Assembly (NCBI GenBank): GCA_964601625.1
Contig: CAZROC010000005.1
Coordinates: forward strand, 21,077 to 85,076
Source of the DNA: an uncultured Thermoplasmata archaeon
GTDB lineage: Archaea > Thermoplasmatota > Thermoplasmata > JAGHBH01
DNA length: 64,000 bases
Reading direction: 5' to 3'
Each line of letters opens with the position of its first letter. Position 1 is the stretch's first letter. Made by a program: the position numbers and the translations under genes. A model generated the notes under the pieces. The model was not told where the DNA came from and ran no database searches. It worked only from the letters and a program-made list of their open reading frames with translations. Below are positions 9,069 to 60,980 of the stretch, piece by piece.

Positions 9069-9524
9069 ATGGGGAAAGTGGAAGCGAAAAAGGCAGAGAA
9101 GGAGTTTGTGAAAAGACGGAATCTGAGAAGGGACAGGAGGGGGGCCCTGGAAGGGTTGCCCCTGTACATGGTCATCCTGGTGGTTATAGCCGCCGTGGCC
9201 ATGGTGATACTCCTGAACTGGACGAAGAGTGTGCAGCACACCGACCTGAAGCGGATTGTGGTTGAGCCAGACACCATAGATGACGGGGAAAAGACATCGG
9301 TCACCATAAGGGCCTACGACACCAAGGGAAACCCCCTTGAGGGTGTGACTATCATACTGGACGGGTGCGGCGTATCAAAGGTTGGAAAGACTTCGTCCAC
9401 GGGAAAATACACCACGTCCATAACACCAGACCTCGCCGGCGAGAGCTACGGCACCATTGATGTGACGGCGAAATACACGGGCACCACTCTCGTGGAGCTA
9501 CACGACGAAATCATTGTCAGTTGA
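9069..9524 (+). CDS. type IV pilin-like protein with class III (prepilin-peptidase) signal peptide and Ig-like C-terminal domain
   Basis: A charged N-terminus ends in RRG|ALEG and is followed by a hydrophobic stretch (LPLYMVILVVIAAVAMVILL), which resembles an archaeal FlaK/PibD cleavage site. The C-terminal region is beta-rich. SD GGAGGT. Confidence 0.45.
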   Translation: MGKVEAKKAEKEFVKRRNLRRDRRGALEGLPLYMVILVVIAAVAMVILLNWTKSVQHTDLKRIVVEPDTIDDGEKTSVTIRAYDTKGNPLEGVTIILDGCGVSKVGKTSSTGKYTTSITPDLAGESYGTIDVTAKYTGTTLVELHDEIIVS

Positions 9525-9656
9525 CGTGGTGTTACAGGAGACAGGGATGTGCGGTCTCTTCCGGCTGCTCCCTTCTCTCTCCGTCGGCTTTGAGTCCACG
9601 CCTCGTATTTTTCCACGCAGTGTGTTTCGTGCCCGGACTGAAAAGTGGTGGTGTGA

Positions 9657-10121
9657 TTGGAAGGAGTCCCGTTGAAATTGCTCGTCAGCGCCGTCTTGCT
9701 GGCCGCTGTCTTGCCTCCCGCCATGACAGCTTTTTCTTCCATCAGAGAGCAGCATCAGGTGGCCATGTTTGAGTCTGAGTTAGAAAATCTCATAAAAACG
9801 GCCCAGTGGGTTTCTATGGGGGGCGCCGGGACCACAGGGGAGGCTGTTGTGGAAGTCCCTTCTTTTGTGGAAAAGGTGGTTTTTGGTTCAAAAGAGGGCC
9901 CGTCCTGTTTGGTAAAGGTGGTTTTTAGCGGTGGAACAGAGAAGAGATATCTGATATCGGACCCCATGGTCTACATGGAAGGGGGGACGGGCGGCGTTTT
10001 TGTGGTCGTTGGCGGAACAGCAGCCCACGTCGTTTTGAGAAACACCGGGTTTGTTGACGTGGACGGAGATGGTTTCATGGACTCGGTGATATGCATCAGC
10101 CGCCCCGCGTCCGGGGGATGA
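9657..10121 (+). CDS. hypothetical membrane-anchored or secreted protein (N-terminal hydrophobic segment)
   Basis: 154-aa ORF with N-terminus LKLLVSAVLLAAVLPPAMTAF. Co-oriented with the pilin-like gene. Confidence 0.35.
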   Translation: MEGVPLKLLVSAVLLAAVLPPAMTAFSSIREQHQVAMFESELENLIKTAQWVSMGGAGTTGEAVVEVPSFVEKVVFGSKEGPSCLVKVVFSGGTEKRYLISDPMVYMEGGTGGVFVVVGGTAAHVVLRNTGFVDVDGDGFMDSVICISRPASGG

Positions 10122-10136
10122 AAAGGGGGTGGTGGT

Positions 10137-10628
10137 TTGTCTGACCTGTTTTTCACAAAGATGATGTGGTTTTTCGTTGCCGCTTCTCTGCTTGTCACCT
10201 CTATAGGGGCGGCGAATTTTTTTGTGTCTCTATCAGAGGACGATGGTACTTCAACGGCTGTATTCTATGCGTCCTGGATAGAGTCGTGTGCTCTGGACCC
10301 CACGGAAGAGTTTGTGAAAGAGGTTCCCCCGCCGCAACGTGGAAACTCGGTTGTTTTTTTCCGGAATACAGTCGTTGTGAGGTCCCACGGCGGCTCTGTG
10401 TCCAGAGGTTTTTCTGTCACCCTCCACATCTGGGACCCCGCGGAGTTGAACGCCACTTCTTTGAACGGCTCCACATGCTTGTCCTCCGGGACTATTGAGA
10501 CCATGGACGGTCTCCACAGGTCTCTGTCGTTTTCTCCCAGCGACAGCGTGTTTTTTGAAAAGAAAAATGTGGTTGTGGACGGTGTTTCCTCGCCCATGTT
10601 GTTTCTCTACAAGCTCCCCAAAGAATAG
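10137..10628 (+). CDS. hypothetical protein with N-terminal TM helix
   Basis: 163 aa with MMWFFVAASLLVTSIGAANFFV and a Ser/Thr-rich ectodomain. Confidence 0.35.
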   Translation: MSDLFFTKMMWFFVAASLLVTSIGAANFFVSLSEDDGTSTAVFYASWIESCALDPTEEFVKEVPPPQRGNSVVFFRNTVVVRSHGGSVSRGFSVTLHIWDPAELNATSLNGSTCLSSGTIETMDGLHRSLSFSPSDSVFFEKKNVVVDGVSSPMLFLYKLPKE

Positions 10629-29222: not shown

Positions 29223-29306
29223 TGGCCTGGTTGTTATATATAGTATGAAGAGTTTTAATTCAACAAACGCTACCGGTTTACTCTTTTAAGGTAAGGAAGT
29301 GATAAA

Positions 29307-37900: not shown

Positions 37901-38758
37901 CTCGGCGTTTCGGGAGAGTCTGGTGTTGATAACAGCCATTTCTCAATGCCAGACGGGATTTTTGTGGCTGATGATGGGACAGTATATGTCGCTGACACAG
38001 GAAACAACAGGATAGTGAGGATAGTAAACGCAGAGGTGGAAACCGGGACCATGGAAAAAAAGCCCGTACAGGTGCCATGGTATGTGAGGGGATTTGGTCC
38101 CTTCCCCATCCCGCTATGGATCCTGTTTTCTCTTTTCCTGATCTCCACATTAATATTTTTGACAGCATTCAAAAGCAGACATAAAAAAGAAATGGGCGTT
38201 TTTCCCTTTAAGAAAGGAGTTTTTTACAGAACAGAAAGCCCAGAAGCGCTATATGGGATCTATAAACAGGCGGTGGCGGGAAACATGCCCGGGCTGATAA
38301 TATCACGCACTCCCCCCGACGTTCTTGTGGAAAAATACAATCTTTCGCCTGCACTCCTTGGAGGGTCATCTGCCAGAGAGTCGCCTACCAGAGAAACAGG
38401 GAAGGCAGAGGAAGGGGCCGAAAAAAAGGAGAAAAAACGCAGAGAAGAATTGTACTGGCTCACAAACACGCCGGGTAAAAACACGGTCTCCCCGGGGGAC
38501 ATCAACCGCCTGCTCTTCCTCGTGAACCGTTTCGCGAAAGAAAACCCCGGCGGCATCGTTGTACTGGACGGTATGGATGCGATATCTACACGTCTTCCAG
38601 AAGAAAAATTTGTTGATGTCGTAGGCCGTTTGAAAGAGATAGCAGCGTTGGGGGGCATTTACTTATTTGGGCGGTTCAACATGCGCGCATACGACGAAAA
38701 GACACTTGCACTGATAGAAGAGGAGACGGAAAAAGCGCCTGAATTAGAAAAAACATGA
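34901..38758 (+). CDS. large surface protein: signal peptide, DUF2341-like N-domain, ~20+ NHL repeats, TM segment, cytoplasmic DUF835-like domain
   Basis: N-terminal signal-like segment, then a WEYRIPVTV... module. Many Y(V/I)AD(T/R)GN(N/H)RVQVF NHL repeats follow. At about aa 1080 comes GFGPFPIPLWILFSLFLISTLIFLTAF-KSRHKK, then a ~190-aa tail with GGIVVLDGMDAISTR (DUF835-like by memory). Confidence 0.8.
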   Translation: MLAFSDRNPVFFRQKGKKGPFFSGLSVFFLFLLLSSSLLLPALLAGEAFFVGDAHASGEREGGWWNRDWEYRIPVTVRDAADHDHTPFLVDLWLDLSKYDVANFTAECRITELFPSGEKEIPFQVVNDRNINGRSYEARVVFPVENLRAGETIAFYIYFGNPGVQPSTLQRDFHPETIKNTLYNPTPENNNYRLSGPTDVFVDETGKMYVADRGNQRVQIYDSDGRYVMSLGVFERAGSDTAHLNHPSGVWVSETTGYIYVADEGNNRVQVFSSSGAYVDTFSANLSSPYDVAVDENGRVFVSDTDNNRVVVFAQNGSVAGEIKDAYGVPLRYPGGLWFDSGVLFVVDTGNHRVVLFNATFQPIDMIGKGTLGTGHGEFSFPSNVVVHGRRVFVSDTGNKRIEVFDKNSLSYLYSVESSSTGEETFMETPRGIFVSDGTVLVADQGTNRVLSFSSSGALISSFGFGASPLSPFSLKNPRAVDVSPNGTVYVADWGNHRVVAYSSTGGHLFTIGVPGEIGSDVFHLANPNDVVFHDGDLFVADRYNNRVQVFNATNGMFEQTLGGVDGGTESYGGFNQPCGLAVDEEGRIYVADTYNNRVLLFNSAGEFVSEIGNGQGTGPGEFRHPYDIEIYGNMIYILDTDNFRVEVFYKQNLTYAGTLLSGSPGLGPYDVRWPCGFDIRDGKMAIADTYNQRVQVYIITAPLNVTYLFTIGTNGTVGVDNQHFMRPRKVDIGPDGKIYVADADNNRIQVYSENGEHLSTIGAEMQPVYDDFSLASPTDVSVDREGNIYVADKNNHRVQVFSPMGEHVMTFGSREKREAGSDNNHLFVPGGVSVSGDIVYIADTGNARVQVFNTTGEYLKTIDVDCYSVEVDSGRIYYAEAPFHAILITSEEGETIQLFGTPGESGTDMEHLNFPLAVDADSDGNVYVADTGNHRVVIYRGVEDRVGDEVWGETGVKGTDITHFSSPEGIAVWNNMVFVSDTGNSRIQVFTTEGEYLFTLGVSGESGVDNSHFSMPDGIFVADDGTVYVADTGNNRIVRIVNAEVETGTMEKKPVQVPWYVRGFGPFPIPLWILFSLFLISTLIFLTAFKSRHKKEMGVFPFKKGVFYRTESPEALYGIYKQAVAGNMPGLIISRTPPDVLVEKYNLSPALLGGSSARESPTRETGKAEEGAEKKEKKRREELYWLTNTPGKNTVSPGDINRLLFLVNRFAKENPGGIVVLDGMDAISTRLPEEKFVDVVGRLKEIAALGGIYLFGRFNMRAYDEKTLALIEEETEKAPELEKT

Positions 38759-38807: not shown

Positions 38808-38895
38808 TGGTGCGGGGGTCGAGATTTGAACTCGAGAACTCCTACGAGACCAGACCCTCAATCTGGCGCCTTTGACCTGGCTTGGCTACCCCCGC
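38808..38895 (-). tRNA. tRNA-Leu (anticodon GAG), type II with long variable arm, CCA encoded
   Basis: Cloverleaf folded by hand: acceptor GCGGGGG/CCCCCGC, anticodon stem CCAGA/TCTGG with loop TTGAGGG, T-loop TTCAAAT, 3' ACCA. Confidence 0.85.
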
Positions 38896-44555: not shown

Positions 44556-45101
44556 TTATTTCAGATATATCTTATACACACATGCGTCGTCTCCTTTGAA
44601 AACACATTTTTCTTCAACGACATCCGCTTTCGTGTGCGTTAGCTCTGTCAGACCTATGTACGCTCCGAGCCAGGCAGCACAGTCCTCTTTTATTCTGTTG
44701 GGCGTGTCTCTCATCTCTATGATTATCTGGTCTTCTTCATACTGTGCGCGCACGGATCCGTATTTGTAAAGCTCTTTGTATATTGTCATAGCTCTTGCGA
44801 TTATGCGCTCCAGGGACGACCACATAAGGAGGTATTTGAAGAGGCCCAGGTCTTTTACGGTGTACCGCCCTCCTTCTTTAACGGCGTCCATGCCTTTCTT
44901 CTCAGATATCCAGCGCAGAACGCTGCTGAGCAACTCCCTGTCATAGAACTCCCCGTCTTTTATCTGGGAGTGGTTGAACCCGACGTCTTTTTCAAGTTCT
45001 GCCACCCCATCTTTGCCCCATTTCTTTTTGACGTATTTGAAAAAACCGTTTATGACGGAGCCACGCACTTTTTCTACGGCATTCACATCTTTTTTCATCA
45101 T
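44556..45101 (-). CDS. hypothetical protein, possibly V4R-like small-molecule-binding domain
   Basis: 181 aa with the C-terminus EEKCVFKGDDACVYKIYL. Only weak similarity to V4R, recalled from memory. Confidence 0.3.
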   Translation of the reverse strand: MMKKDVNAVEKVRGSVINGFFKYVKKKWGKDGVAELEKDVGFNHSQIKDGEFYDRELLSSVLRWISEKKGMDAVKEGGRYTVKDLGLFKYLLMWSSLERIIARAMTIYKELYKYGSVRAQYEEDQIIIEMRDTPNRIKEDCAAWLGAYIGLTELTHTKADVVEEKCVFKGDDACVYKIYLK

Positions 45102-45274
45102 TTAAGCACCTCTTATTCTATTGGCGTTTTATCAGCGTATGATATATATGTCCTGGTGCTTACTTAAATTTTTCAACAAAACCAGGGGCTAATTTATGAA
45201 ACAGTCTAATTTATTCGCCGTGTCTCTGACATTTTCGCATACACTTTTGCACACAACTTGTCAGATGTTGACTG

Positions 45275-46693
45275 TCAGAGCGCGGTGGCGTCCATGCCTG
45301 TGTGAAGAGACAAGCGTGGTCTTATCATACAGTACTCCAGTTTTCGGGTTCGGTCGTCAAAGATTATAGCAAGTCCCCTCCTGGAATCCATTGTGCTGAC
45401 GAGAGAGGCAAGGTCTCTTCCTTTTCCCATAAAACTCTGCCTGGCCTTTGACAGACTCGTTATGTCCGGCTCTGCGGTTATCTGGTGAGAAATCACCATA
45501 TCCGCTTGGCGTATGGCCGTGTCGTGGATGGCAGAGGGCTCCTGTGTGGCCAGCACGATGCTGAGCCCCGGGTGTCTCCCCAGTTTTATCCAGTCAATAA
45601 GCGGTTGCGAAGAAATCGTGGTCCCATCTGATGGGAGAAAAAGATGCGCCTCGTCTATGACGAGATATACCAGCGGGATGCGTTTCTTTTTTCCGCCGCC
45701 CCCTTCCAGGTCCCATTCTTCTTTGCTCTCCCCGCTGTTTCCCAGCAGTCCCGCCAGTTTCTGCATCTCCACGGTCATTTCAACGGTTTTTTCATGCAAC
45801 AACCTCTCAGCAATAAGCGCGACCACAAAAGACCGCATGTCAAGGGTGCCCATTCTCCTAAGCCCGCTTATGTCAAGTATGGTTATCCTGCCTCCCTCCA
45901 CCAGAGATTGTCCGCTCCCGTCTTTGTCCTCTGAAAAAAGCCCGGTGTTTTTCGCCATTCTGAGAAGGGCAACAAGTGCTTTTCTGGTCTGCTCGTCCGA
46001 GCCCATCTTTTCCGCTGTTTGTATCATATCACTCAGGGTGTACCCGGCGTGTCCGTGTCTTGCATATCCGTGTTCCGCGCCGTCCGGGTATCCATCCATC
46101 TCTGCCCTTTTTCTGTCTCTGAGGCTTTCCAGAACGTCCAGCAGGAGAGTGCCCACAGGGTCTGTTGGGGAGAGGTGGAAAAGCGAGAGCCACATGTGCT
46201 GGCTGACCTCGTCGGCCCGGAACTCCAGGAGCCGGTCCATGTACGGTTTCTGCCCGGTGGATTCAAGCTTTTCCACGGTCTTTCTGGGCATGGCTATCAA
46301 AACGTTGTCCAGCCCCCTTGGAGCCAGCTCTCTGAAATCCTTCATCCGCTCCACTTCAGCCGCATTTGTGTTCGGGGACTTCAGGCTGTGAAAAACGCTC
46401 ATGGTGTCCACGACGAGAACCGCTATCTTGTTTCTCATCTCCGCCGGCAGAAGAGAGAAATTTTCAAGGAAGACACCGAGGGTGTAAGACTTTCCCGTTC
46501 CACGTTTGCCCAAGACAAGGATACAGTGGGGCGTGGCGAGGTCAACGTAGAGTGCGCCCCCCTCTTCATAGACCCCGCCTGGGTAAGACACCACTTTTCC
46601 CATATAACCGCACCCTTCCGAGCCGTACTTTTTAACATCGCTCTCTCTTCTGCCCAGTATTTCAGTTCTCACACATCTCCCTCCACATGTCAC
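45275..46693 (-). CDS. DUF87-type HerA/VirB4-like P-loop ATPase
   Basis: Walker A (HCILVLGKRGTGKSYTLG), Walker B (LVYLVIDEAHLFLP) and LATQEPSAIHDTAIRQADMVISHQI match the FtsK/HerA/VirB4 clade. The start overlaps the stop of the upstream platform gene (ATGA). Confidence 0.7.
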   Translation of the reverse strand: MTCGGRCVRTEILGRRESDVKKYGSEGCGYMGKVVSYPGGVYEEGGALYVDLATPHCILVLGKRGTGKSYTLGVFLENFSLLPAEMRNKIAVLVVDTMSVFHSLKSPNTNAAEVERMKDFRELAPRGLDNVLIAMPRKTVEKLESTGQKPYMDRLLEFRADEVSQHMWLSLFHLSPTDPVGTLLLDVLESLRDRKRAEMDGYPDGAEHGYARHGHAGYTLSDMIQTAEKMGSDEQTRKALVALLRMAKNTGLFSEDKDGSGQSLVEGGRITILDISGLRRMGTLDMRSFVVALIAERLLHEKTVEMTVEMQKLAGLLGNSGESKEEWDLEGGGGKKKRIPLVYLVIDEAHLFLPSDGTTISSQPLIDWIKLGRHPGLSIVLATQEPSAIHDTAIRQADMVISHQITAEPDITSLSKARQSFMGKGRDLASLVSTMDSRRGLAIIFDDRTRKLEYCMIRPRLSLHTGMDATAL

Positions 46694-48777
46694 GCCAGTA
46701 TGTTCATACCACTGGCCGCCGCAAAGACGAAAAGCGTCATGGCAGCCGGTAGAGAGTGCCCAAGAGATCTTTTAAAGGCGACACGGTCGTCGCCGCCGAG
46801 TATGCCCGTGGTGAAATAGGATGTTGTCACAACAGAGAAAAAAAGAAAAACAGCGAGCACCCCCATGAAGGCGTCTGTTGAAAGAGATGGCCTTGCTCCG
46901 AGCGTTGAGAACTCTCTTGTGAGAAGAGAGTAGAGAGATACAGTGACCCCCATCACAAGCGGGGCGAAAATGATGCTCGTGCTCTTCATCATATCAACTA
47001 CACTCTTCAACTTTGTTTTTATGTCATGGTCAACCTTTTGCATCTCACGCAGATAACTGGAAACGGATATTATCGTCTCGCCAGCAGAAACAGGGTCTTT
47101 TTTAACACATTCAACCAGCGTTTTCATAGCAGCACGTACGCCTCTGCTGTCCATGTTCTCCATCAACCCTCCACGGCCAAAAAGGATGTGGTCAAGCGGT
47201 TTTCTGCTTATTCTCAGGCGGTTTGAAATGTCCACCATGAGGTTGCCCAGGGGTGTGTCGCCCAGGGCCCGGCCAGACTTGTGCACTGCGGTCTCAAGAG
47301 GGTCCCCCTCCAGCAACCTGCTCCCGATGTGAAACAGGGCGTCTGGGAGCTCTTTTTCCATTTTCAGGAGGCGTTTTCGTTCCCTCTCGCTTTTCTCCGT
47401 GGAAACCACAAAAAACACTCCCAGACCATAGCTCACGGAGAGCAAAAAAACAACCACGCCCGGCAGAGCGGAGAAAACAGGGACATCCATGCCGACATCT
47501 CTGAGCGTCAACATGAGAACGGGAAAAAACCCGGCCACGGCACCAGCCAGCACGCCCTTCTTTTTCTCCCGACTCCACCCAACTTTTTCCACCTGTGGCG
47601 GAGCGGAAGTGCCCGGTCTCTTTCCGAGTATGTAATATGCATAGGCAAAGGTCGAGAAAGGAAAAACGACGTCCATGAGAGCCACAACAGCCAGGCCGAA
47701 ATCCCCGCTGCCTTTCTCCACGCTTTCGCCCACGGAGCCGGAGACGTCCTCCAGCTCGTCCACGCCCGTGACACTGTTAGAAGCGCCCGCTCCACCAGCG
47801 GTGACAGATATGTCCATTCCCTGGAGGGGTATAACTGCGCCCATCAGCATGGGGAGGACCACCCCCAGGGCGAAAAGCACGGTTGTTGGGCCGCTCAGAG
47901 AAGAGGCGAACTCTTCCACCTTTTCCTTTGAGCCGTTTATGACTATCATGTGTGCCTTTTCAAGTGCCCGTTCACGCATCTCAGGGGACGCCTCGGAAAC
48001 AGCGCTTTTTATGGTGTAAAGGGCGCGCTTGAACTCCTCACTCCACGCACCCCATCTCTGGGCAAAAACACTCAACGCCTCATCAACCGTTTGATGCCTG
48101 CGCAGAGCTACCTCGCGCAAAACCCTCCTGAAATGTGACGCCAGGGGCTCCTCGCTGTTCTCGGCAGCGAACTCAACCGCTCTCTCAAGAGAAGGCGAAG
48201 TCCTCAGGCTCATGGTCATGTAATTTATTGGCTCCGGTGTCCGACCGATTGAAAGCGCCTGGACCCTTTTTGCGAGAATCTCAGGATACGATGAGAGGAG
48301 CAAGAAAACAATCGCCGGCCCGAAAAGAACAACAGGAAGCAGATATGATCTGTAAAAATCGTAATGGGCGGGAAAGAGGGAGACCAGAGCGTAAAAACCC
48401 ATCAGAAGAGCGGTGAAAAAACAGACAGATACAACAGCAGAGAAACGGACGGCCTCCTGCGGGTAAACGTCCATGCCAAGAAAATATGTCGCCTCTGTAA
48501 AAGATGGCTGAAGAACCTGTCTGCGGGTCTTATCCCACTTCTTTTTTTCCCGTTCATATAGATCCCGGGCGTCCCGCACCTCTGGCGAACCTGGCGGGAA
48601 GTTCATCTCAACACCCAGAAGGTTTCTCTTAGCTGCCAGGAGGCGTTTTTCAGCACTGTACAGTTTTTTTCTGTCCACTCCGCCTCCGCCACCAACGGCT
48701 TTGCAGCCGATATAATACCACCTGCCGTACCGGGGAAAATATGACCGCCGCCGGTCATCGCCGTGCTTGTCCCTCAT
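46690..48777 (-). CDS. TadC/FlaJ/PilC-like polytopic membrane platform protein (two T2SS-F-like repeats)
   Basis: 695 aa. Two cytoplasmic helical domains, each followed by TM helices, give a GspF-like architecture. ATGA-coupled on both sides. Confidence 0.7.
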   Translation of the reverse strand: MRDKHGDDRRRSYFPRYGRWYYIGCKAVGGGGGVDRKKLYSAEKRLLAAKRNLLGVEMNFPPGSPEVRDARDLYEREKKKWDKTRRQVLQPSFTEATYFLGMDVYPQEAVRFSAVVSVCFFTALLMGFYALVSLFPAHYDFYRSYLLPVVLFGPAIVFLLLSSYPEILAKRVQALSIGRTPEPINYMTMSLRTSPSLERAVEFAAENSEEPLASHFRRVLREVALRRHQTVDEALSVFAQRWGAWSEEFKRALYTIKSAVSEASPEMRERALEKAHMIVINGSKEKVEEFASSLSGPTTVLFALGVVLPMLMGAVIPLQGMDISVTAGGAGASNSVTGVDELEDVSGSVGESVEKGSGDFGLAVVALMDVVFPFSTFAYAYYILGKRPGTSAPPQVEKVGWSREKKKGVLAGAVAGFFPVLMLTLRDVGMDVPVFSALPGVVVFLLSVSYGLGVFFVVSTEKSERERKRLLKMEKELPDALFHIGSRLLEGDPLETAVHKSGRALGDTPLGNLMVDISNRLRISRKPLDHILFGRGGLMENMDSRGVRAAMKTLVECVKKDPVSAGETIISVSSYLREMQKVDHDIKTKLKSVVDMMKSTSIIFAPLVMGVTVSLYSLLTREFSTLGARPSLSTDAFMGVLAVFLFFSVVTTSYFTTGILGGDDRVAFKRSLGHSLPAAMTLFVFAAASGMNILA

Positions 48778-51254
48778 TTGACCACCCCACCCCCACCCTG
48801 TTCAAACCCCTTCTTCCACTCCTCAAAAAACTCCGCGGCGTCATCTTCCCCGCCCGTTTTCCACCCCTCGTCAACCATGGACCAGAAAAGCGAATACGCC
48901 CTGCTGACACTCTCCGGCCTGACAGCGCCCGTAAAACCGCTGTTCCCCGCCACCTCCACCAGATACCCGTGTATTTTTCCCCGGACATCAATGTTGTAAA
49001 TCGCTTCTTCAACACGCATGCCCCAGTCCCTTGCTATGCGGGCGACTACCTCGGACCTGTAATAAAAATCGTCTGTTGGGACAAGAGAGTCTTTTACATC
49101 CGAGTATTCCATCAGAGCCCTGAACTCTCCCTCAACGTCTTTGTCTACCTCAGCCACAGAGAGAACCCGCCTCCGAACCCGGTGGCCGCCTCCGGGGCGC
49201 ACCAGACCGGCGACAACCACAACATCTGTGGCAGAAAAAGACGGGAACGGGATGCCGATGTCATGGACCACTCTCTCATAAACCGCCCTGGGGCTGTCGG
49301 CGTGAAAAGTTCCCATGACAGAGGAACCAGCAGTCCCGGTCCTCATGGCCTCATACAGCACCTTTGCTTCTTCGCTCCGTACCTCTCCGAGAACAAGGGC
49401 GCTCTCACCCAGACGCAGCGAAACCCGGAGCGCGTCTCTGCTATCAGAACCGTTTCCCACGAGCATGCTCTGGACCTTATATCCCAGTTTCTGCATCTCA
49501 CGGACAGGCAGCTCGGGGGTGTCCTCTATTGTCAGAACACGCTGGCTCTTCGGGAAAGCAAAAAGCATCCCGCCAAGAAGAGACGACTTGCCAGCACCCC
49601 TGCTACCCGCAATTATTATGGTCGCCCGCCCATCAACCAGAAACCACAGGAGACCACAGGCCATCGGGGAAAGAGACCCGGCCATCAAAAGGCGGGGGAG
49701 TGTCCACGGATCAAGCGAATGTCGCCTCAGAGCAAGTGCCACACCGCCGGGACTCAGAGGGGGCCCTATCAACGTCGCACGGGCGTTGAACTCCGGCATA
49801 TCCGTCTCCAGAACTGGGTTCGCTTCGGAAAAACCCCTGCCGCTCACGTGCCTGAGACGTGAGACCATGCTCTGAAGGTCCCTCTCGCTCAACGTTATGT
49901 TCGTGACCATTTTGGAGGGTATGTCCACGCCGGCGGAGCCAACGACCACGTGTACAGGGTTTTCCTCGCACGGAGCGTTAACATAGATGTCCTGGACATA
50001 AGGGTGTTGTAGGAGGAACTCCAGCACACCAACGCCTGTCGTGTACCTTCCGAGAATTAGAGCCAGTTTCCGCGCCTTCTCGGCATCTTCCATTATCGCG
50101 CCCCGCCTCGTCCTTTTTCTCCTGCGCTGCAGTTTTCTCAGGATGATCCTCTCAGCCAGTCTCTCAACAAAGGCCCTCGCAACATCCGGTTCTCCCATAT
50201 TTATCTCAGAGAGGTCCCTGGAAAGAATCTCCTCAATGGTCTCGTAAACCAGCACGACATCTGATTTTTTCATAGAATACTCGTCCGGTATCATATGGAG
50301 AAAGCCTTCTGTGGAACCTGGCAACCGGTACATCCGTGTCCAGACACCCCCCTCCCTCTTTCCACCCAGCAACGTACCATCTGGCGTCTTCTTCTCTATC
50401 CACGTCGTTGAAAAACACGGGCGAATCTGTCTGGTGCTTTCAAGAAAGGTGTCTATGTCTTCATAAAAGCCGCTCACGTCCACCCCCCTTATTTTGCGTA
50501 TAACATCTCCCAGCAGCGGATGGTTTTTTACTCGTATAGGCCCTCTCTTTTTTCCGTTGTCATCTCCTCCCCCGTCACCCACCCTTTTTATGTGCATATT
50601 GATCCCGGTGCCCTCGGAGATTCCCGCCCCCCCATCCAGGTGTTTTACCACGTGCTCCCTCATGGACTCCGCCATGGAGAGCAGCATAACCACACGATCC
50701 CTGGTCAAAGAAGAACACGAAAAACACCCCCTGTTTTCCCTCACCTGGCTGAAAGAACCGCTCAACAGCAGATCTCTGAGGTACATATAAAAATCTCCGG
50801 GGTCCAGAAAAAGCCGTTTCCTTGCCTCAGTGAAAACGTTTTTGGGGTTAACGGAGCACCTTTCACACCGGAGGCCAAGCAACCCACTCTTCGGTCCCTG
50901 GGACCGGACAAAACTGTCAAGCTCAGCCACGATCGCGCCAATCTTTTTTAACAGATCGACCCCGGGGCCAGGATACATCTCCTCATTATAGTCTTCCAGG
51001 ACAATCCTGTCCACAACAGTTTCCTGCGATACAACCCTTATGGCGCCAGCCCTGCACCGGAGGTTCAAAAGTGTCCCTGCACCAGGGCACGAACGGCACT
51101 GTAGAAAAACTGTGTTTTTGCCCCCATCCTTTTTCACCTCATAGCGGCAGATGGAACTTGAGAGATCAACATCCTCTCGCTCGCCACGGGCACAAACTCT
51201 CTCTTCATCTGAGCCCGAAACGGGATTCACAACACCGTCTTTCCCCATAAGCAA
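48774..51254 (-). CDS. FlaI/TadA/VirB11-family secretion ATPase with ~330-aa Cys-rich N-terminal extension
   Basis: The C-terminal half has Walker A (IIAGSRGAGKSSLL), ALVLGEVRSEEA (Asp/His-box region) and TIEDTPEL. The N-terminal 330 aa are unrelated to the usual FlaI N-domain and carry CRSC, CERC and CFSC motifs. Confidence 0.8.
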   Translation of the reverse strand: MLMGKDGVVNPVSGSDEERVCARGEREDVDLSSSICRYEVKKDGGKNTVFLQCRSCPGAGTLLNLRCRAGAIRVVSQETVVDRIVLEDYNEEMYPGPGVDLLKKIGAIVAELDSFVRSQGPKSGLLGLRCERCSVNPKNVFTEARKRLFLDPGDFYMYLRDLLLSGSFSQVRENRGCFSCSSLTRDRVVMLLSMAESMREHVVKHLDGGAGISEGTGINMHIKRVGDGGGDDNGKKRGPIRVKNHPLLGDVIRKIRGVDVSGFYEDIDTFLESTRQIRPCFSTTWIEKKTPDGTLLGGKREGGVWTRMYRLPGSTEGFLHMIPDEYSMKKSDVVLVYETIEEILSRDLSEINMGEPDVARAFVERLAERIILRKLQRRRKRTRRGAIMEDAEKARKLALILGRYTTGVGVLEFLLQHPYVQDIYVNAPCEENPVHVVVGSAGVDIPSKMVTNITLSERDLQSMVSRLRHVSGRGFSEANPVLETDMPEFNARATLIGPPLSPGGVALALRRHSLDPWTLPRLLMAGSLSPMACGLLWFLVDGRATIIIAGSRGAGKSSLLGGMLFAFPKSQRVLTIEDTPELPVREMQKLGYKVQSMLVGNGSDSRDALRVSLRLGESALVLGEVRSEEAKVLYEAMRTGTAGSSVMGTFHADSPRAVYERVVHDIGIPFPSFSATDVVVVAGLVRPGGGHRVRRRVLSVAEVDKDVEGEFRALMEYSDVKDSLVPTDDFYYRSEVVARIARDWGMRVEEAIYNIDVRGKIHGYLVEVAGNSGFTGAVRPESVSRAYSLFWSMVDEGWKTGGEDDAAEFFEEWKKGFEQGGGGVVK

Positions 51255-51298
51255 CCGCCAACGTGGTCCCTCATGGAGAAGTGGTTTAAAAGGTTTTG

Positions 51299-52315
51299 CT
51301 TTCTTAAAACGAGTGCAGTATCCCGAAATATTTTAACAGTTGTTCCTGTTAGGGGTATGCGGAAGTTGAATGATAGGAAGGTTCGTTGGATTATCAGGGA
51401 GATTGAGAAGGGTTCCAGTATGTCCAGGGTAGTTCGTATTCAGGGGGTTTCCCGTGTGCGTGTTTGGCAGTTGTGGCGGGAATACGTGGCCACTGGAGAG
51501 GTTCCACGGTTACGGAAGCCTGGTAGGAAGCCTGTCCCTATACCTCGGCATGAGAGAGAGCTGGTTTTTGAGATGTATGAGAGATACAAACTCGGCCCCC
51601 TGGCTTTGGAAAGAAAGATCAGGCGGGAGACCGGACAGCATATCCCACACAACAAGATATACCGGATCATGTTGGAAGGAGGGCTGATTGTGGAAAACCC
51701 AAGAAAGAAAAGACAACGCAGATATGTGAGATTTGAAAGAACACACTCGATGAGCATGTGGCAAGGCGACTGGAAACAAGTCCAAATAGACGGCGAAAAG
51801 AAATGTCTCATTGCCTTTATGGATGATGCCAGCAGACGAATAATGTGCTATGGAATCTACGATCATGCGACCACAGAAAACACCATACGGACACTAAGAG
51901 AGGGTTTCCGCAGACACGGGTGTCCTAGGGAGATTCTCATAGACCACGGACCACAATTCACAGCCAACAAAAAAAGAGACAAGAAAGGACGCGGTAAACA
52001 TCCTTTCCCAGAGTTCCTGAGACAACACGGCATAAAACATATTCTAGCAAGGGTCCAACACCCACAAACAAATGGCAAAATAGAACGCTTCTTCGGCACC
52101 CTCGAACAAAAACTCCCACTGTTCAACAACAACATACACGAACTCATACACCGGTACAACTATGACAAACCACACATGAGTTTGGATTTTGAGAACGCAG
52201 AAACACCAGAAGAAGCATTCTGGAGAAAACTCCCACCAGAAAAAATCCTTGAATACGCGGGGTGGTTACTTGAAGCGTAAAATCAATTCAGGATACTACA
52301 CTTTCTTAAAACGAG
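51299..52315 (+). mobile_element. IS481-like insertion sequence (987-bp core 51314-52300) with imperfect terminal inverted repeats and 15-bp direct target duplication
   Basis: Left end TGCAGTATCCCGAA (51314-51327) and right end TTCAGGATACTACA (52287-52300) are inverted. Identical CTTTCTTAAAACGAG copies flank both ends (51299-51313; 52301-52315). Confidence 0.65.
51357..52280 (+). CDS. transposase (HTH + DDE integrase-core/rve domain)
   Basis: DDE region (CLIAFMDDASRRIM...ILIDHGPQFTA...HPQTNGKIERFFGTLEQ) is typical of IS481/IS3-type rve. The Met at 51357 lies within the IS boundaries. Confidence 0.75.
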   Translation: MRKLNDRKVRWIIREIEKGSSMSRVVRIQGVSRVRVWQLWREYVATGEVPRLRKPGRKPVPIPRHERELVFEMYERYKLGPLALERKIRRETGQHIPHNKIYRIMLEGGLIVENPRKKRQRRYVRFERTHSMSMWQGDWKQVQIDGEKKCLIAFMDDASRRIMCYGIYDHATTENTIRTLREGFRRHGCPREILIDHGPQFTANKKRDKKGRGKHPFPEFLRQHGIKHILARVQHPQTNGKIERFFGTLEQKLPLFNNNIHELIHRYNYDKPHMSLDFENAETPEEAFWRKLPPEKILEYAGWLLEA

Positions 52316-52360
52316 CGATTGGTTTATATCCTCTGCTTTTTTTATGAGTGAGGAGAGAGT

Positions 52361-53398
52361 ATGAAAGTAATGATGTGTCCGCCAACTGGAACTCCATATT
52401 TAGATCTGTTGAAACAAGCGTTGGAGGAAGAAGGAATTAGGGTGGTCCCGGTTTCTTGGTTTGGCAAACAGACGGTGTATTCGCTATCTCAGCTTTTTAA
52501 AGGAAAAATAGGTGGGGCGAACATATTACATTTGCATTGGATGCCTTTTAACTGGTTTTACATGATGAGAATGGTGAGAAAGATATCTGGTTTTATTAAG
52601 GCAGAAATGGTATGGACCATTCACAACCTAATACCACATGAACCCAGATATGGAAGCACTGAAAAAGATATAGAGGCAATGAAATATATGGCTAATTGGG
52701 CGGTTGCGGGTATAGCACATTGCGAAAAAACGAAAGAAGAGTTTCATCAAATATATAGAAAAGATATGCCTATTTTTGTAATACCTCATGGTAATTTTAA
52801 TAAATATACCACTCCTTTTATCAAAGATCCAGAGGAATCACGAAAAAAATTGAATATACCGCCTGATAAAATAGTTCTTTTGCTGTTTCCTGCTAATCGT
52901 TGGAACAAGGGTATAAAAATGTTTATTGATGTAGTAAAGAAGCTTCCGGAAGAATATATGGGAATCCTTGCTGGAAAATGCAAAAATACAGAAATAAAAA
53001 ATTATATTAAACGAGAGACACAAAAAAATAGAGATAAATTTATAGTCAACCTTGGGTATCTAACTGATGAGGAAGCTGGATATTATTTTAGCGCCTCAGA
53101 CATATTTTTTATGCCATACACATACATAACTACTTCCGGTAGTGTGATGTATGCATTAGGGTTCAAAAAACCGGTCATTTCTACGCCAAAGGGTAACTTA
53201 TATCAACTTGTGAAAAACGGTATTAATGGCTTTTTATGTGAAAATGAAGAAGAAATGATAGAAAAAATACTTAGTATAGATCGGGAAACAGCTAGAAAAA
53301 TGGGAGAAGAAAGTTATAGAATAGCATCTCAACCTCAATTTAATTGGAGAGAAATTGCTAAAAAAACAATATCTGTTTATGAATATATAACAAAATAA
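52361..53398 (+). CDS. GT1/GT4-family glycosyltransferase
   Basis: C-terminal GT-B pattern (ALGFKKPVISTPKGNLYQLVKNGINGFL). AT-rich codon usage. Confidence 0.7.
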   Translation: MKVMMCPPTGTPYLDLLKQALEEEGIRVVPVSWFGKQTVYSLSQLFKGKIGGANILHLHWMPFNWFYMMRMVRKISGFIKAEMVWTIHNLIPHEPRYGSTEKDIEAMKYMANWAVAGIAHCEKTKEEFHQIYRKDMPIFVIPHGNFNKYTTPFIKDPEESRKKLNIPPDKIVLLLFPANRWNKGIKMFIDVVKKLPEEYMGILAGKCKNTEIKNYIKRETQKNRDKFIVNLGYLTDEEAGYYFSASDIFFMPYTYITTSGSVMYALGFKKPVISTPKGNLYQLVKNGINGFLCENEEEMIEKILSIDRETARKMGEESYRIASQPQFNWREIAKKTISVYEYITK

Positions 53399-53486
53399 AA
53401 GAACAAAATAATATAAAATAAAAAATAATATTAAGAGATATAAAAAACTGGCGGATGGATTTTTATACTGTAGGGACTATTTACCG

Positions 53487-54911
53487 TTGATGTTAGAAAA
53501 CGGAAAGCCAGACATCCTCTTTATAGTCTTGGACACTATGCGAAAAGATTATACTTTAATGCTTGAAAAAGAATTATCAAAATACAATTTTATATCTTAC
53601 GATAGGGCCATTTCTCCGGCTCCTTGGACCACACCATCTCACGCATCTATTTTTTCTGGGATGTATCCTGCTTTCCATGGGGTTCATGAGTCCAAAAGAA
53701 GAAAGCTGACAGATGTGTTTTTTAAAAAAGGGTTAAATAATCTTATTATTTCATTAAAAAATCATAAATATAAAACATGTCTGTTCAGTAGTAATAACTT
53801 TGTAACTCCAATCTATGGGTTTAAACCATTTGACCATTTTTTCTATGTTCACGCGTTCCCTCCCTCCTGGAACTTTTTATCAGATCAGGAGAGAAAAATA
53901 ATCTCTAAAATGAAATTTAATATCGACAATCCATTCCAAATGATAAATTTATTACATAATTCTGATGTTAAAATCACAGCTCTTAAATATATCTCCGAAA
54001 CGACGGCAAATATGTTAATTAGATTTAACGCAAAATTATTTTTTAATTGGCCAAAAAATAAAGGTAATCGCTTATTAACAAATAAAGTAAAAGATGTTCT
54101 TTTAAAAGAAAATAGTTCTTCATCTGATAGATATCCTCGTTTTATTTTTGTAAATTTTATGGAAGTTCATGAGCCATACACCATCAATGAACCAGTTAGT
54201 TTTTTGGATAATCTAAAAGAGAATGGGGCGTCTGAGAGGAATCTCTACGTCTGGAAAAAGAAATATAAGGAATTTTCTGAATATCTAAATAAAAATATAA
54301 TAACATTAATAAAAAACCTTGAAGATAAACTTGATAACATGCTAATCATAATTACCAGCGACCATGGACAGCTTTTAGGAGAGCATGGAAATAAAGTGGG
54401 TCATGGAACATATCTCTATGATGAACTTTTACGGGTTCCATTTTTAATTAGGTATCCGGATTCTTGGAAAAATAAAAATTCTCTTGAAAGATGGGAAACA
54501 ACAGACACCGAATCATGGCTTAGTTTGATAAAAGTAAAAGACATCATTGAAAAAGTTATCCTGTCCGATTCCTCCACTGTCTCAAAGAAGAAAATTCTAT
54601 CGGATATTGTATTCAGTGAAAGTTACGGGATACATCGTCGTGTAAGCTGGCTAAACGATTCTAAATCTCTGGCATCCAACGGAAAAACAGAAGAAATGGA
54701 GATAATCAAAAAAATCACACATTTAGAAAAGTACAGGATCGCAATATATTATAAAAATTCCAAAGTGATATTTAATGTTTCTGACTGGAAAATAGAAAGC
54801 ATTTCTTCTTTTAGTGATAAGATAATTGACGAAAAAGCTCTCATATATGAAGTGAAGAAACACGTCATGAATTTTATAAAAACTTCTACCGTACGCTCTT
54901 TAGTGCGTTAA
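53487..54911 (+). CDS. sulfatase-family (alkaline-phosphatase superfamily) protein
   Basis: N-terminus ILFIVLDTMRKDY...SPAPWTTPSHASIFSG resembles the sulfatase/phosphotransferase metal-site region. SDHG also present. Confidence 0.65.
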   Translation: MMLENGKPDILFIVLDTMRKDYTLMLEKELSKYNFISYDRAISPAPWTTPSHASIFSGMYPAFHGVHESKRRKLTDVFFKKGLNNLIISLKNHKYKTCLFSSNNFVTPIYGFKPFDHFFYVHAFPPSWNFLSDQERKIISKMKFNIDNPFQMINLLHNSDVKITALKYISETTANMLIRFNAKLFFNWPKNKGNRLLTNKVKDVLLKENSSSSDRYPRFIFVNFMEVHEPYTINEPVSFLDNLKENGASERNLYVWKKKYKEFSEYLNKNIITLIKNLEDKLDNMLIIITSDHGQLLGEHGNKVGHGTYLYDELLRVPFLIRYPDSWKNKNSLERWETTDTESWLSLIKVKDIIEKVILSDSSTVSKKKILSDIVFSESYGIHRRVSWLNDSKSLASNGKTEEMEIIKKITHLEKYRIAIYYKNSKVIFNVSDWKIESISSFSDKIIDEKALIYEVKKHVMNFIKTSTVRSLVR

Positions 54912-54956
54912 AAGTATGCCTTTTGTCCTTTTCGTACTTCCGGCGAGGATGTCAAG

Positions 54957-55806
54957 TTATTGCCTCCTTAGGTTGTATATTGTGATGAATGATAGGCACC
55001 ATGATAGTGCTGTTTCTGGTTTGGCGTTGTGTGGCCATCTTTTGTAGAATTGTTTGATTCTGTGTTTGAATATGTGGTACCATTGCTCTATTGGGTTTCT
55101 TGGTCCGAAGGTTTTGTGTTCCCATGTTAGTCCCATTCGTTGTAGGGCCCATGGGTTTGTTGGGAATTGCTTAGGGCAATTCCCCAAATCGTGCGGAATT
55201 TTAACAGAGTTAAAATTCCGTAGATACCATGGGCCCCCGTCTACGTAGATGTGTGGTTTGTTTGTACAGGTTTTTAGGATCTTTCTTAGAAAGATGTATG
55301 TGTCTAGTCCTGAGCGGGTTGTTGTTATTTGTATTGCTAGTATTTCCCATGTTTGTGTGTCTATGGCTGTCCACATGTAGTGCCATTTTCCCTGGATTTT
55401 TATCTTTGTCTCGTCTATTGCTATTGTTGGTCTATGTTTTTTCTCGGGTGTTGATAGTAGGTGTTTTGCTCTGTGGTACCATTGTCTGGCTGCCTCATAG
55501 CTGCCTCCCCCCGAACAGTCTCAGGACTTCCTCTGTTTTCCTATAGGATAGTCCCAGGTAGACTAATAGTATTTCCAGCGCTCTTATTTCCATGGGGGTT
55601 CTTTCTCTCACGAAAACCTTTTTAGCCCTTAACAATTCTACTATCCTCGTGAGCATATCCCATCCCTTCTGGCCCAACAAACCGGACCAAAACAGGGATA
55701 TGCTCACACCAAACTTAACACTTATCTTGACATCCTCTTCCGGCTTTATGGTATGCTTTTTATATAAGAGAGTATATAAGAGATTCTTGAGGGAATGCGA
55801 TGCCAA
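54957..55806 (-). pseudogene. IS6-family-like transposase, disrupted (N-terminal HTH ORF 55495-55806; DDE fragment 54957-55376)
   Basis: The N-terminal ORF (RERTPMEIRALEILLVYLGLSYRKTEEVL) and the C-terminal fragment (WTAIDTQTWEILAI...NPIEQWYHIFKHRIKQF) lie in different frames with a gap, so the element is degenerate. Confidence 0.5.
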
Positions 55807-57389
55807 AACTTATAATCCTAGGTCTTGACGGCGCTACATGGGATATATTAATGCCTCTATTAAACGAAGGCAGGCTTAAAAACTTAAAACGTATGGTTGA
55901 AAATGGTAGTTATGGAAATTTAATTTCTACAATCCCCCCAATAACTTCTCCCGCATGGGTATCCATGGCTACTGGGAAAAATCCGGGGCAGCTGGGAGTC
56001 TTTGATCTGTTGTATAGAGAAAACGAAGAAGAATTAACTTTGAAGCCTGTTTATTTCTATATGTTTAAAGGAAGTTTTTATTGGGATTTTTTGTCTAACA
56101 TGGGTTACAGAGTAGGACTCATTTTTTATCCTTTTCTGTACCCTCCATACAGAATCAATGGAATTATGGTTCCGGGATATGGCGCACCGTCTGAAGAAAA
56201 GATGTATCCATCCACCCTTTCGGATGAAATAAAGAAACGATTTGGAGAAATTAAATTTATGAAAGGTAGCCCAGCAGGTCTAAGCGATGAAAAGGCCTTT
56301 AAAGAGATTGTTTCAATAACGAAACAGCATTTTGAGATAGGAAAATACATCATTGAAAATAATGACTTGGATGTAATAACGTTTGTCATTTCTGGTACGG
56401 ATTGGATTCAGCATTTTTTCTGGAAATTTCTTGATCCAACACACGCGCTTTATGATGAAAAAATCGCTACTGTTTATAGAGAAAAAATATTTAAATTTTA
56501 TGAATATATAGATGAACAAATAGGAGATATTATTGGAATGTTTCCAGATAGCAACTTTATTATAGTTTCTGACCATGGTTTTGGTTCCTTAGATCAATAT
56601 TTCAATTTAGTTAAATGGTTGATTGATAATGGTTATATGGTATTTAAAAGAAAAATATCTGGATATTCAAAATTTAAAAATTCTATATTACAGTTCATGA
56701 GTAAGATAAACAGGCGAATTCCAATAGTAAAGATAATTCCCCGTTCTATATCAAAAAAAGCATGGGCAACCCTCAAAATTGATATCTCAGAAGTTCTTGA
56801 TTTAGAAAGGACAAAAGCATTCTGTTTAGGACATCATACGTCTATGGGAAGCATATATGTAAATAAGACGCTTATTTCAAATAAAAAAGATGTTGAAAAA
56901 ATAAAAAACGATATAAAAAACGGTTTAATAGAAACACTAAAACGTTTTGGCGTGGAGAATGTTAAATTTTATTCAAAAGAGGACATCTACCATGGGAAAA
57001 AAGCTCATCTGGCTCCGGATATGTGGTTCTCTGTGAACGATGGAAGATGTGCAATTATGCAACAGAGGATTGATCATCCAGTTCTGTTTGAAAATGTCCC
57101 ACTGGAAAAACGGATAAATGGAAGTCACCGCTTTGAGGGAATTTTTTTAGCATATGGACCTGATCTGGCGGCGAAAGGAAACATGGGAGATCTGTCCATA
57201 TATGATATTGCACCTACTGTTCTATCGTTTTTCGGTATACCCCCCCCATCTGATATGGACGGCAAAGTAATAGAGGAAATATTACCCCGAGGCAGGGTTA
57301 GAAATATAAAAAGTGTTTCAGCGAGAGACCTCGAAAAGATGCGCATAAAAGAAAAACTCCGCCAGATGAAACAGTTAAAGAACGTATAA
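55800..57389 (+). CDS. alkaline-phosphatase-superfamily protein (type I phosphodiesterase/nucleotide pyrophosphatase-like)
   Basis: ILGLDGATWDIL...SPAWVSMATGKNPGQLGVFD...SDHGFG are metal-site motifs of PF01663-like enzymes. Confidence 0.6.
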   Translation: MPKLIILGLDGATWDILMPLLNEGRLKNLKRMVENGSYGNLISTIPPITSPAWVSMATGKNPGQLGVFDLLYRENEEELTLKPVYFYMFKGSFYWDFLSNMGYRVGLIFYPFLYPPYRINGIMVPGYGAPSEEKMYPSTLSDEIKKRFGEIKFMKGSPAGLSDEKAFKEIVSITKQHFEIGKYIIENNDLDVITFVISGTDWIQHFFWKFLDPTHALYDEKIATVYREKIFKFYEYIDEQIGDIIGMFPDSNFIIVSDHGFGSLDQYFNLVKWLIDNGYMVFKRKISGYSKFKNSILQFMSKINRRIPIVKIIPRSISKKAWATLKIDISEVLDLERTKAFCLGHHTSMGSIYVNKTLISNKKDVEKIKNDIKNGLIETLKRFGVENVKFYSKEDIYHGKKAHLAPDMWFSVNDGRCAIMQQRIDHPVLFENVPLEKRINGSHRFEGIFLAYGPDLAAKGNMGDLSIYDIAPTVLSFFGIPPPSDMDGKVIEEILPRGRVRNIKSVSARDLEKMRIKEKLRQMKQLKNV

Positions 57390-57393
57390 CTTC

Positions 57394-58122
57394 TCAGTTC
57401 CCCGCCGCCTCCAGTATCACCCTTGCGAAATCTGTTATTTTTGGTGTGCCAAGGTCTGTGAAGTTGGTGCTCCAGAATCCGTAGTCGGAGTGGTCTCCAT
57501 ATGCTCCTACGGGTTTCATTCCGTGGTCGGACAGGACTATTTTTTTGCCCGGTGCTTTTGCTTCCGCTGTTTTCACTATGTCTTCTATGTCCCGGTATAT
57601 CATTTTCATGAGCAGTCTGTTTCCAAAGTTGAGGTGGCCTATCACGTCTGCCACGGAGAAATAGCCGAGGACGAGGTCGTGGTCTTCTCCAAGTGCTTTG
57701 AAAAACTCCTCTTTTATTTTTCTGTGGTGGGCGAAAGAGAGGTCGTTGTACTCTTTTTTTATCTCTTTTTTCTTTTCCTCGTCCTCCGCCGAGAAATAGG
57801 CTTTGAGAAGTTCTCTTTCTCTGCTGTGCTGGTTGAGGTCGTAGTTGTATCCGGGGAGATCTATTATTTTTGGGTTGTCAAAACGGGAAAAAAAGGTTTC
57901 TTCCAGGGGAATGCGGGTGTTCCACATCTCTCTGTCTCCTTTTGCGAGTATCTCTGCCTCTTTGTTCTGCCCGGTCATGAATGAGCTCCACAGCACCATC
58001 GTCCTTGGCTGGGAGAACTCTGTTATGTCTGTTTTTCCGTAAAACTTCTGTTTGATTCCTCTGAGGTTAAATTCCTCCACCAGGCTGTACTCCAGCGCGT
58101 CAACGGCTATTATGGTTATCAT
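57394..58122 (-). CDS. small alkaline-phosphatase-superfamily protein
   Basis: IIAVDALEY...VLWSSFMTGQ...LSDHGM is the same metal-site pattern in a shorter protein. Confidence 0.45.
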   Translation of the reverse strand: MITIIAVDALEYSLVEEFNLRGIKQKFYGKTDITEFSQPRTMVLWSSFMTGQNKEAEILAKGDREMWNTRIPLEETFFSRFDNPKIIDLPGYNYDLNQHSRERELLKAYFSAEDEEKKKEIKKEYNDLSFAHHRKIKEEFFKALGEDHDLVLGYFSVADVIGHLNFGNRLLMKMIYRDIEDIVKTAEAKAPGKKIVLSDHGMKPVGAYGDHSDYGFWSTNFTDLGTPKITDFARVILEAAGN

Positions 58123-60902: not shown

Positions 60903-60980
60903 GGGCCCGTAGCTTAGCCTGGTTGGAGCGCCCGGCTGATAACCGGGAGGTCCGGAGTTCAAATCTCCGCGGGCCCACCA
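60903..60980 (+). tRNA. tRNA-Ile (anticodon GAT), CCA encoded
   Basis: Cloverleaf: acceptor GGGCCCG/CGGGCCC, anticodon stem CCCGG/CCGGG with loop CTGATAA, T-loop TTCAAAT. Confidence 0.85.

Follow-up and report, generated by a model that had tools for sequence, protein, structure and literature searches.

A type IV pilus-like operon of uncultured Thermoplasmatota with a HerA-type second ATPase

The operons that have been described for archaeal pili and archaella contain a single ATPase gene, with the exception of CdiP, which has two of the AapE type, and archaea lack the PilT retraction motor (PMC12448462). Archaeal pilin genes may lie far away from the motor genes, about 500 kb in Cuniculiplasma, and are also remote in Haloferax (PMC12448462). 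A VirB4-like ATPase, a VirB6-like channel and a VirB2-like pilin together define the Ced and Ted systems; VirB4 works on the pilin in type IV secretion, and Thermocladium has a VirB4-like gene beside the pilin gene (PMC9905601). In the part of the locus tables of Makarova et al. (2016) that we examined, HerA stands beside FlaI or a pilin gene only twice, and the paper makes no comment on this. Here, we analyze an operon in 64,000 nucleotides (nt) of DNA from an uncultured Thermoplasmata archaeon (contig CAZROC010000005.1 of assembly GCA_964601625.1, forward-strand positions 21,077 to 85,076; this whole stretch is called the window below), in which genes for a secretion-type ATPase and a membrane platform are followed by a gene for a HerA-type ATPase. 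An earlier note on this DNA had described the trio as pilin-less, had suggested a translocation machine rather than a pilus, and had pointed out that canonical archaeal filament loci do not use a HerA-type motor. In line with the last point, a HerA-type ATPase in an archaeal pilus operon is undescribed in the literature that we searched, and so is a type IV pilus-like operon of this kind that recurs in related genomes. We think that the trio is best read as part of a type IV filament machine that is peculiar to this lineage and has a second motor or switch of the HerA type.

Our calls of open reading frames (ORFs) give four minus-strand genes in the 44556-51254 region, instead of the three described earlier (lengths in amino acids, aa):

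48774..51254, minus strand: secretion/assembly ATPase of the FlaI/TadA/CpaF/GspE2 type, 826 aa as longest ORF, T2SSE match
46690..48777, minus strand: polytopic membrane platform of the FlaJ/TadC (T2SSF) type, 695 aa, about 9 predicted membrane helices
45275..46672, minus strand: HerA-fold P-loop ATPase, soluble, clade A, 465 aa, Zot, DUF87 and HerA_C matches
44556..45101, minus strand: V4R/H-NOX/DUF2378 superfamily protein, 181 aa, HNOB, V4R and DUF2378 matches

The three long ORFs that had been reported are present (48774-51254, 826 aa; 46690-48777, 695 aa; 45275-46693, 472 aa). The span of 44556-51313 given for them is imprecise, as 44556 is the stop of the fourth gene and 51313 lies inside a divergent IS481-family transposase gene. 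Of two proposed ATGA overlaps, the one between ATPase and platform genes (48774-48777) is a true ATGA, in which the platform start overlaps the ATPase stop codon. The junction at 46690-46693 reads GTGA and not ATGA. The GTG at 46693 would open the 472-aa HerA ORF; public gene calls start the gene at the GTG at 46672, with GGAGGGAG before it (465 aa), leaving an 18-nt gap from the platform gene. This gap is more likely than a GTGA overlap. For the ATPase gene, an ATG at 51248 is an alternative start. Between the HerA gene and the 181-aa gene lie 173 bp of AT-rich spacer, in which there are a TATA-like stretch and a GAGGTG ribosome-binding site, so that the V4R-like gene may have a promoter of its own.

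The assignment of the first protein to the FlaI/TadA family of secretion ATPases, made in the earlier note, is borne out by a Pfam match above cutoff (PF00437, T2SSE, 4.5e-14) and by the best NCBIfam models, FlaI (5e-37) and TadA (9e-35), both of which score far under their equivalog cutoffs. Searched against the PDB, the ATPase profile finds A. fulgidus GspE2 (2oap, 1.3e-38), CpaF (3e-32) and FlaI (4.7e-29). By sequence, the protein is an assembly ATPase of the archaeal pilus/Tad clade and no FlaI equivalog. No variation is seen in its Walker A, Asp box, Walker B and His box among 11 orthologues. At its N-terminus (50205-51254) it has a Cys-rich extension of about 200-350 aa with several CxxC pairs; the N-terminal 350 aa, searched alone, had no Pfam match. 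In many relatives (L011, L013-L017, L063, L065 and others), this Cys-rich domain and the ATPase core are encoded separately, the domain by a gene of about 170-250 aa that lies just upstream of the gene for the core. The platform protein stays just under the Pfam cutoff for T2SSF (7.9e-5, 23.1 bits versus 25.2), a family that is matched by all 12 of 12 platform orthologues (best 1.1e-6). This agrees with the T2SSF part of the earlier description, a two-repeat T2SSF platform. The two repeats themselves are weak: the halves align in register with hhalign at E=0.009, the C-terminal half searched alone had no Pfam match, and the platform profile had no sequence match in the PDB.

The third protein had been placed in the FtsK/HerA/VirB4 clade as a DUF87 ATPase. 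The DUF87 and HerA_C matches agree with this; the protein also matches Zot. It is structurally closer to HerA than to VirB4, and it is without VirB4-type Pfam matches. Across the family of HerA-like proteins, the Walker A (GKRGTGKS), Walker B (IDEAH) and GRHPG/ATQEPS motifs are all invariant. The HerA equivalog models of NCBIfam give only 15-26 bits, compared with cutoffs of 800-970, which together with the HerA fold and the intact motifs indicates a HerA-fold ring ATPase other than the repair helicase. The fold and the invariant catalytic motifs point to a ring ATPase that is predicted to be active. Proteins identical to those of the window are encoded on a public contig of 100 kb, and close homologues all come from Thermoplasmata or from Thermoplasmatota metagenome-assembled genomes (MAGs). 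The family is almost confined to Thermoplasmatota MAGs, and uncultured Thermoplasmatota of sediments and soda lakes have it in abundance. The wider family comprises 258 clusters below 1e-30 (HMMER, 1.84 billion representative proteins). Its long members include intein-bearing copies, one tandem duplication, DUF835 fusions and winged-helix fusions, the last in more distant relatives (P0183, P0225). Inteins interrupt the ATPase in P0143, P0149 and P0174 (Intein_splicing, with LAGLIDADG in two of the three), and in two of these proteins the insertion lies just after the Walker A loop.

A scan with the HerA-like profile, one genome per species, gave 52 loci, onto which the four window proteins were mapped. 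In a tree of the HerA-like proteins, which like the cruder ATPase tree was made by neighbor joining only, the family splits cleanly into clade A, which includes the window protein, and clade B. Clade A genes follow the platform and ATPase genes in the same order, apart from three exceptions (L001, L034 and L039), the first of which has the platform and lacks the ATPase. Between the stop of the platform gene and the HerA start, the median distance is 15 nt, as measured in 26 locus records that include duplicates. In clade B, 36 locus records have a gene of about 150 aa, which we call c4, immediately before the HerA gene (median gap 21 nt); in about 20 loci the HerA gene is followed by one to four copies, in tandem, of the 181-aa V4R-like family, and no ATPase or platform gene occurs within 10 kb. 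Four MAGs contain both clades. Clade A beside the platform and clade B beside c4 mean that both clades touch parts of type IV filaments, and the HerA-type ATPase is thus not the generic standalone enzyme that, according to the earlier note, would have refuted its reading. The trio is also a conserved unit: it is found in about 17 genome loci and 5 metagenome loci, in the same order and with tight spacing, and order and spacing are kept across diverged loci in which HerA identity is 46-57%.

The ATPase-platform pair has a wider distribution than the trio. A scan of metagenomes with the ATPase profile yielded 80 loci that were kept. In 37 of them the sequence continues downstream of the ATPase gene for at least 3.6 kb, and of these, 35 have a platform gene and only 5 a HerA-like gene. 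The HerA-type gene is a conserved accessory of a broader ATPase-platform family and does not belong to its core. In the ATPase tree, HerA-carrying ATPases form three or four clusters that are interleaved with HerA-less ones and mirror the subclusters of HerA clade A. This suggests co-inheritance, and the HerA-type gene appears to be inherited together with the ATPase-platform family. Among the neighbours examined, a minority of which had been scanned against family libraries, none was conspicuous as a nuclease, a DNA-binding protein or a defence partner.

Next to the window trio there is indeed no pilin-like gene. The nearest ones are about 35 kb away, at 9069-10628:

9069..9524, plus strand: c4 pilin-like protein, 151 aa, homologous to c4 genes of relatives
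9657..10121, plus strand: c3 pilin-like protein, 154 aa, found by tblastn with c3 proteins of relatives
10137..10628, plus strand: c8-like protein with N-terminal hydrophobic helix, 163 aa, found by tblastn with c8 proteins of relatives

In orthologous loci, small genes (c3, c4, c5, c6 and c8) flank the trio, and all of their products combine a short basic leader and a conserved Gly with a hydrophobic helix and a beta-rich domain. Pilin-like genes directly flank the trio in L008, L011, L012, L018, L019, L063, L067 and L140. In L008, L012 and L018, c4 and c3 are upstream and c5 and c6 downstream, and in L011 and L063 c4 and c3 come immediately after HerA; L063 has the N-domain, ATPase, platform, HerA, c4, c3 and c8 genes in one run. 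The HerA-less locus L117 has the ATPase, the platform, c4, a large protein, c3 and c8. Because the c4-c3-c8 set of the window matches the set that flanks the trio in relatives, the system is split between two loci, and the terms "pilin-less" and "rather than a pilus" have to be given up. The N-terminus of c4 consists of a basic leader, the conserved motif G-ALEGLPLY(L/M)IILVV and a hydrophobic helix, and is followed by an immunoglobulin (Ig)-like domain. In the AlphaFold model, the basic leader, which is disordered, precedes a helix (30-54) and an Ig-like beta-sandwich (60-150); Pfam matches are to Big_1 (5.8e-7) and Invasin_D3. It is likely that c4 is a filament or pseudopilus subunit of the same system, 35 kb from its motor genes.

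Some details of these genes deserve mention in their own right. The c3 ORF of the window has a TTG start right after an in-frame stop and begins at the EG(V/I/F)P motif (EGVPLKLL), hence without the basic leader of its homologues; either the protein is naturally leaderless or its 5' end has been lost. Directly downstream of the c4-c3-c8 cluster, a gene for a DUF373 membrane protein (10719-11909, plus strand, 2.9e-90, 6 predicted helices) was not seen beside the cluster in the other loci that we looked at. Giant proteins of 1650-1780 aa adjoin the trio in L015 (1-5331), L017 (87-5165), L021 (184-5157) and L008 (10697-15844) and cluster with the c3 family at a query coverage of at least 35%. The N-terminus of the L015 protein is c3-like, so the giant proteins may be pilin-anchored adhesins.

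For the fourth gene of the window, a homologue search with the 181-aa protein returned only 2 proteins, and the family was built from translated loci instead. On its own, the window protein matches HNOB (0.003) and V4R (0.17). Among 25 family members, 20 match DUF2378 (best 9.4e-6), 8 match V4R (best 7.5e-7) and 3 match HNOB; the family profile had no significant match in the PDB. Conserved Cys residues are found in the C-terminal part. The matches place the protein with the ligand-binding domains of the V4R/H-NOX superfamily; its predicted ligand is small, and a role as sensory input is suggested. After clade-B HerA genes, three or four tandem paralogues of the V4R/DUF2378-like gene can occur (L060, 557-2886; L041, 2323-3989), which hints at a hetero-oligomeric assembly.

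Together, these data suggest, tentatively and with a likelihood that we would put slightly below even, that the motor module of a type IV filament (pilus-like) system is encoded here, a system that is found almost only in Thermoplasmatota MAGs. In this model, the FlaI-like hexamer and the platform would lift c4, c3 and c8 from the membrane into a surface filament or a short pseudopilus. The HerA-like ring would be a second cytoplasmic motor, docked at the platform and acting on the c4-type subunit in extraction or disassembly, comparable to the VirB4 pilin dislocase beside VirB11 or to the PilT retraction motor, and the V4R protein would modulate its activity depending on a ligand. We observe directly that the genes are conserved and coupled, that the fold is that of HerA with its catalytic motifs intact, and that there are genomic links to platform and c4; from this we infer docking, substrate and direction of action of the HerA-like ring. 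Several findings weigh against the model. The machine works without HerA, as judged by its presence in only 5 of the 37 ATPase-platform loci; the closest structural relative of the HerA-type protein is a DNA translocase; and the clade-A HerA gene stands alone in L034 and has nothing detected in 8.7 kb upstream in L039. As to the subunits, Pilin_N was sub-threshold (1e-3) and seen for one c4 orthologue, fold searches with c4 returned generic Ig domains only, the residues after the conserved Gly of c4-type proteins are non-canonical, and no prepilin peptidase (PibD/FlaK/EppA, Peptidase_A24) was found among the polytopic proteins of the window that were scanned, a subset of its ORFs. We therefore call c4, c3 and c8 pilin-like and not proven pilins. 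Finally, expression of this copy of the operon is uncertain, because an insertion sequence (IS) element now abuts its 5' end.

Alternatively, the HerA-like hexamer could pump DNA in or out, through or alongside the pilus-like apparatus, as a euryarchaeal counterpart of competence or of Ced/Ted. Type IV-like pili are required for natural transformation in some methanogens, and to our knowledge there is no archaeal DNA uptake translocase outside Ced/Ted. Also in favour are the inteins at the P-loop of close relatives (P0143, P0149, P0174) and, farther off, the winged-helix fusions of P0183 and P0225. However, the neighbours examined in either clade include neither a channel like VirB6/CedA or ComEC nor a pilin like VirB2/CedA1, a nuclease or a DNA-binding gene, the membrane partner is of the T2SSF type, the NCBIfam HerA models stay at 15-26 bits versus cutoffs of at least 800, and in clade B the ATPase has a pilin-like protein and V4R sensors as its partners and not DNA-handling genes. 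We regard DNA translocation, for which the HerA fold is the one direct support, as unlikely. The narrower proposal of a ring that translocates nucleic acid as a built-in part of a type IV pilus-like machine is more doubtful still. If it were true, this would be the first candidate for a DNA uptake or transfer motor of Thermoplasmatota and the wider euryarchaea, and one operon would unite what Sulfolobales divide between Ups pili and the Ced system.

It is also conceivable that no substrate is moved, and that the HerA-like NTPase sets the state of the pilus motor on a signal from the V4R protein, in the manner of ArlH/FlaH (KaiC-like) in the archaellum or TadZ in Tad pili. V4R/H-NOX-type genes follow HerA in the window and in about 20 clade-B loci, with up to four tandem copies, and secondary NTPases recur in type IV filament systems (PMC6668835). 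Moreover, distant HerA-like relatives are fused to winged-helix domains and to DUF835, an inactivated KaiC-type signalling output domain (PMC5847659). Against a switch stands the complete invariance of the translocase-type motifs, and beyond the window a V4R gene near clade A is seen only in L010, about 1.3 kb downstream and on the opposite strand; we doubt this explanation, too. The HerA-like gene might finally come from a defence system or a mobile element and stand beside the pilus genes by chance. PADLOC mad8 (4.8e-17) and weak matches to defence-type HerA models, as well as the IS481-family transposase gene and the low-GC island immediately upstream of the operon, would fit such an origin. 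It is nevertheless very improbable, since order and spacing are kept even where HerA identity between loci has dropped to 46-57%, the divergence of the ATPase appears to run parallel to that of HerA, no Sir2, DUF4297, NurA or other MADS partner is present among the examined neighbours, and the independent link of clade B to c4 argues for a function shared with pilus parts.

The DNA upstream of the operon differs from the rest of the window. The IS481-family transposase gene (51273-52280, plus strand, NF033577 1.1e-56) and the ATPase ORF are on opposite strands, and only 19 bp separate the start of the transposase gene from the ATPase ORF. Beyond it lies a low-GC island (52300-58100, 0.34-0.38 versus about 0.52 elsewhere) with a glycosyltransferase gene, a sulfatase-type gene and, by eye, an apparent partial transposase at 54957-55376. 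Public contigs of the same strain break near the ATPase start: L007 ends 2 nt before it, and L006 starts inside the ATPase gene. Taken together, transposase gene, island and contig breaks suggest that other DNA has taken the place of the native region upstream of the operon. The only candidate inverted repeat of the IS481 element (51193-51207 / 52349-52363, 15 nt, 87%) may be a chance match; if 51193-51207 is an end of the element, then the ATPase start codon would fall inside it.

Elsewhere in the window, an exosortase/archaeosortase-like membrane protein (1.2e-13) is encoded at 32823-33815 on the minus strand. Near it, at 34901-38758 on the plus strand, is the gene for an NHL-repeat beta-propeller protein of 1285 aa, whose C-terminal domain, DUF835, is also the fusion partner in distant relatives of the HerA-like ATPase. 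At 27975-29981 on the plus strand, GC is low for a second time (0.34); this stretch holds a 415-aa ORF with the sequence SPPY and a 224-aa ORF and, as judged from reading the sequence alone, looks like an acquired restriction-modification island. The tRNA genes are:

38808-38895, minus strand: tRNA-Leu (GAG)
60903-60980, plus strand: tRNA-Ile (GAT)

The result of this study is a concrete protein family with two clades and defined partners, namely the platform, c4 and V4R proteins. A HerA-fold ATPase that is coupled to the platform, and in the sister clade to a pilin-like gene, speaks for a second energy-using step in filament biology, for which subunit extraction, retraction, transport of a substrate or of DNA, and signal-dependent switching are candidates. 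More generally, "pilin-less" motor loci should be compared with orthologous loci before a function other than that of a pilus is proposed.

Four known systems were considered for the locus and rejected. An archaellum would have an ArlI/FlaI equivalog, a KaiC-like ArlH, archaellins and ArlF/G; this set is not seen here, and the FlaI score is far under its cutoff. The HerA-NurA repair helicase does not fit the 15-26 bits versus 800-970, and no NurA, Mre11 or Rad50 was found where neighbours were Pfam-annotated or clustered. For anti-phage HerA (Sir2-HerA, DUF4297-HerA, MADS), PADLOC matches the ATPase alone (mad8, 4.8e-17) and none of the neighbouring proteins. The Zot/pI assembly ATPase of filamentous phages combines an N-terminal Zot P-loop with a C-terminal membrane segment, an arrangement that is absent from the HerA-type protein.

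In type IV secretion, an ATPase of the VirB11 superfamily is paired with one of the VirB4/HerA superfamily, and this pairing is echoed here. The membrane part, however, is of the T2SSF type and not VirB6/CedA, which sets the locus apart from type IV secretion and from Ced/Ted alike. No VirB6-like or VirB2/CedA1/TedC-like gene was found in the examined parts of the window and of related loci, where the conserved small neighbours are helix-plus-Ig proteins and not two-helix VirB2-like pilins. The locus is thus no member of Ced/Ted, and the analogy to these systems or to conjugation that had been drawn is not supported, the ATPase being nearer to HerA than to VirB4. From HerA-NurA and defence-type HerA (Sir2-HerA, DUF4297-HerA, DptH) it differs in that the conserved partners are pilus-type membrane proteins. 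The archaellum, with ArlH-ArlI-ArlJ (FlaHIJ), has a matching set of three, in which a platform and a secretion-type ATPase are joined by a second NTPase of the RecA fold. In Tad pili, likewise, platform, main ATPase and secondary NTPase are encoded together (PMC6668835), and the main ATPase of the window is CpaF-like (3e-32); unlike the HerA-type protein, TadZ is of the ParA/MinD type, and no Flp-type pilin or secretin turned up here. A T2SSE-family ATPase with a T2SSF platform encoded beside it, as in archaeal type IV filament systems, is present. Compared with the pili among them (Aap, Ups, Epd, haloarchaeal PilB/PilC, Cuniculiplasma CdiP), the locus is distinguished by a third gene, for a HerA-fold ATPase, that is coupled to the platform gene, by the Cys-rich N-terminal domain of the assembly ATPase, and by subunits with the unusual G-ALEGLPLY motif. 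It resembles them in three respects: an ATPase of the FlaI/TadA clade is coupled to a FlaJ/T2SSF platform, the small subunits combine an N-terminal hydrophobic helix with an Ig-like domain, and the subunit genes lie far from the motor genes (PMC12448462).

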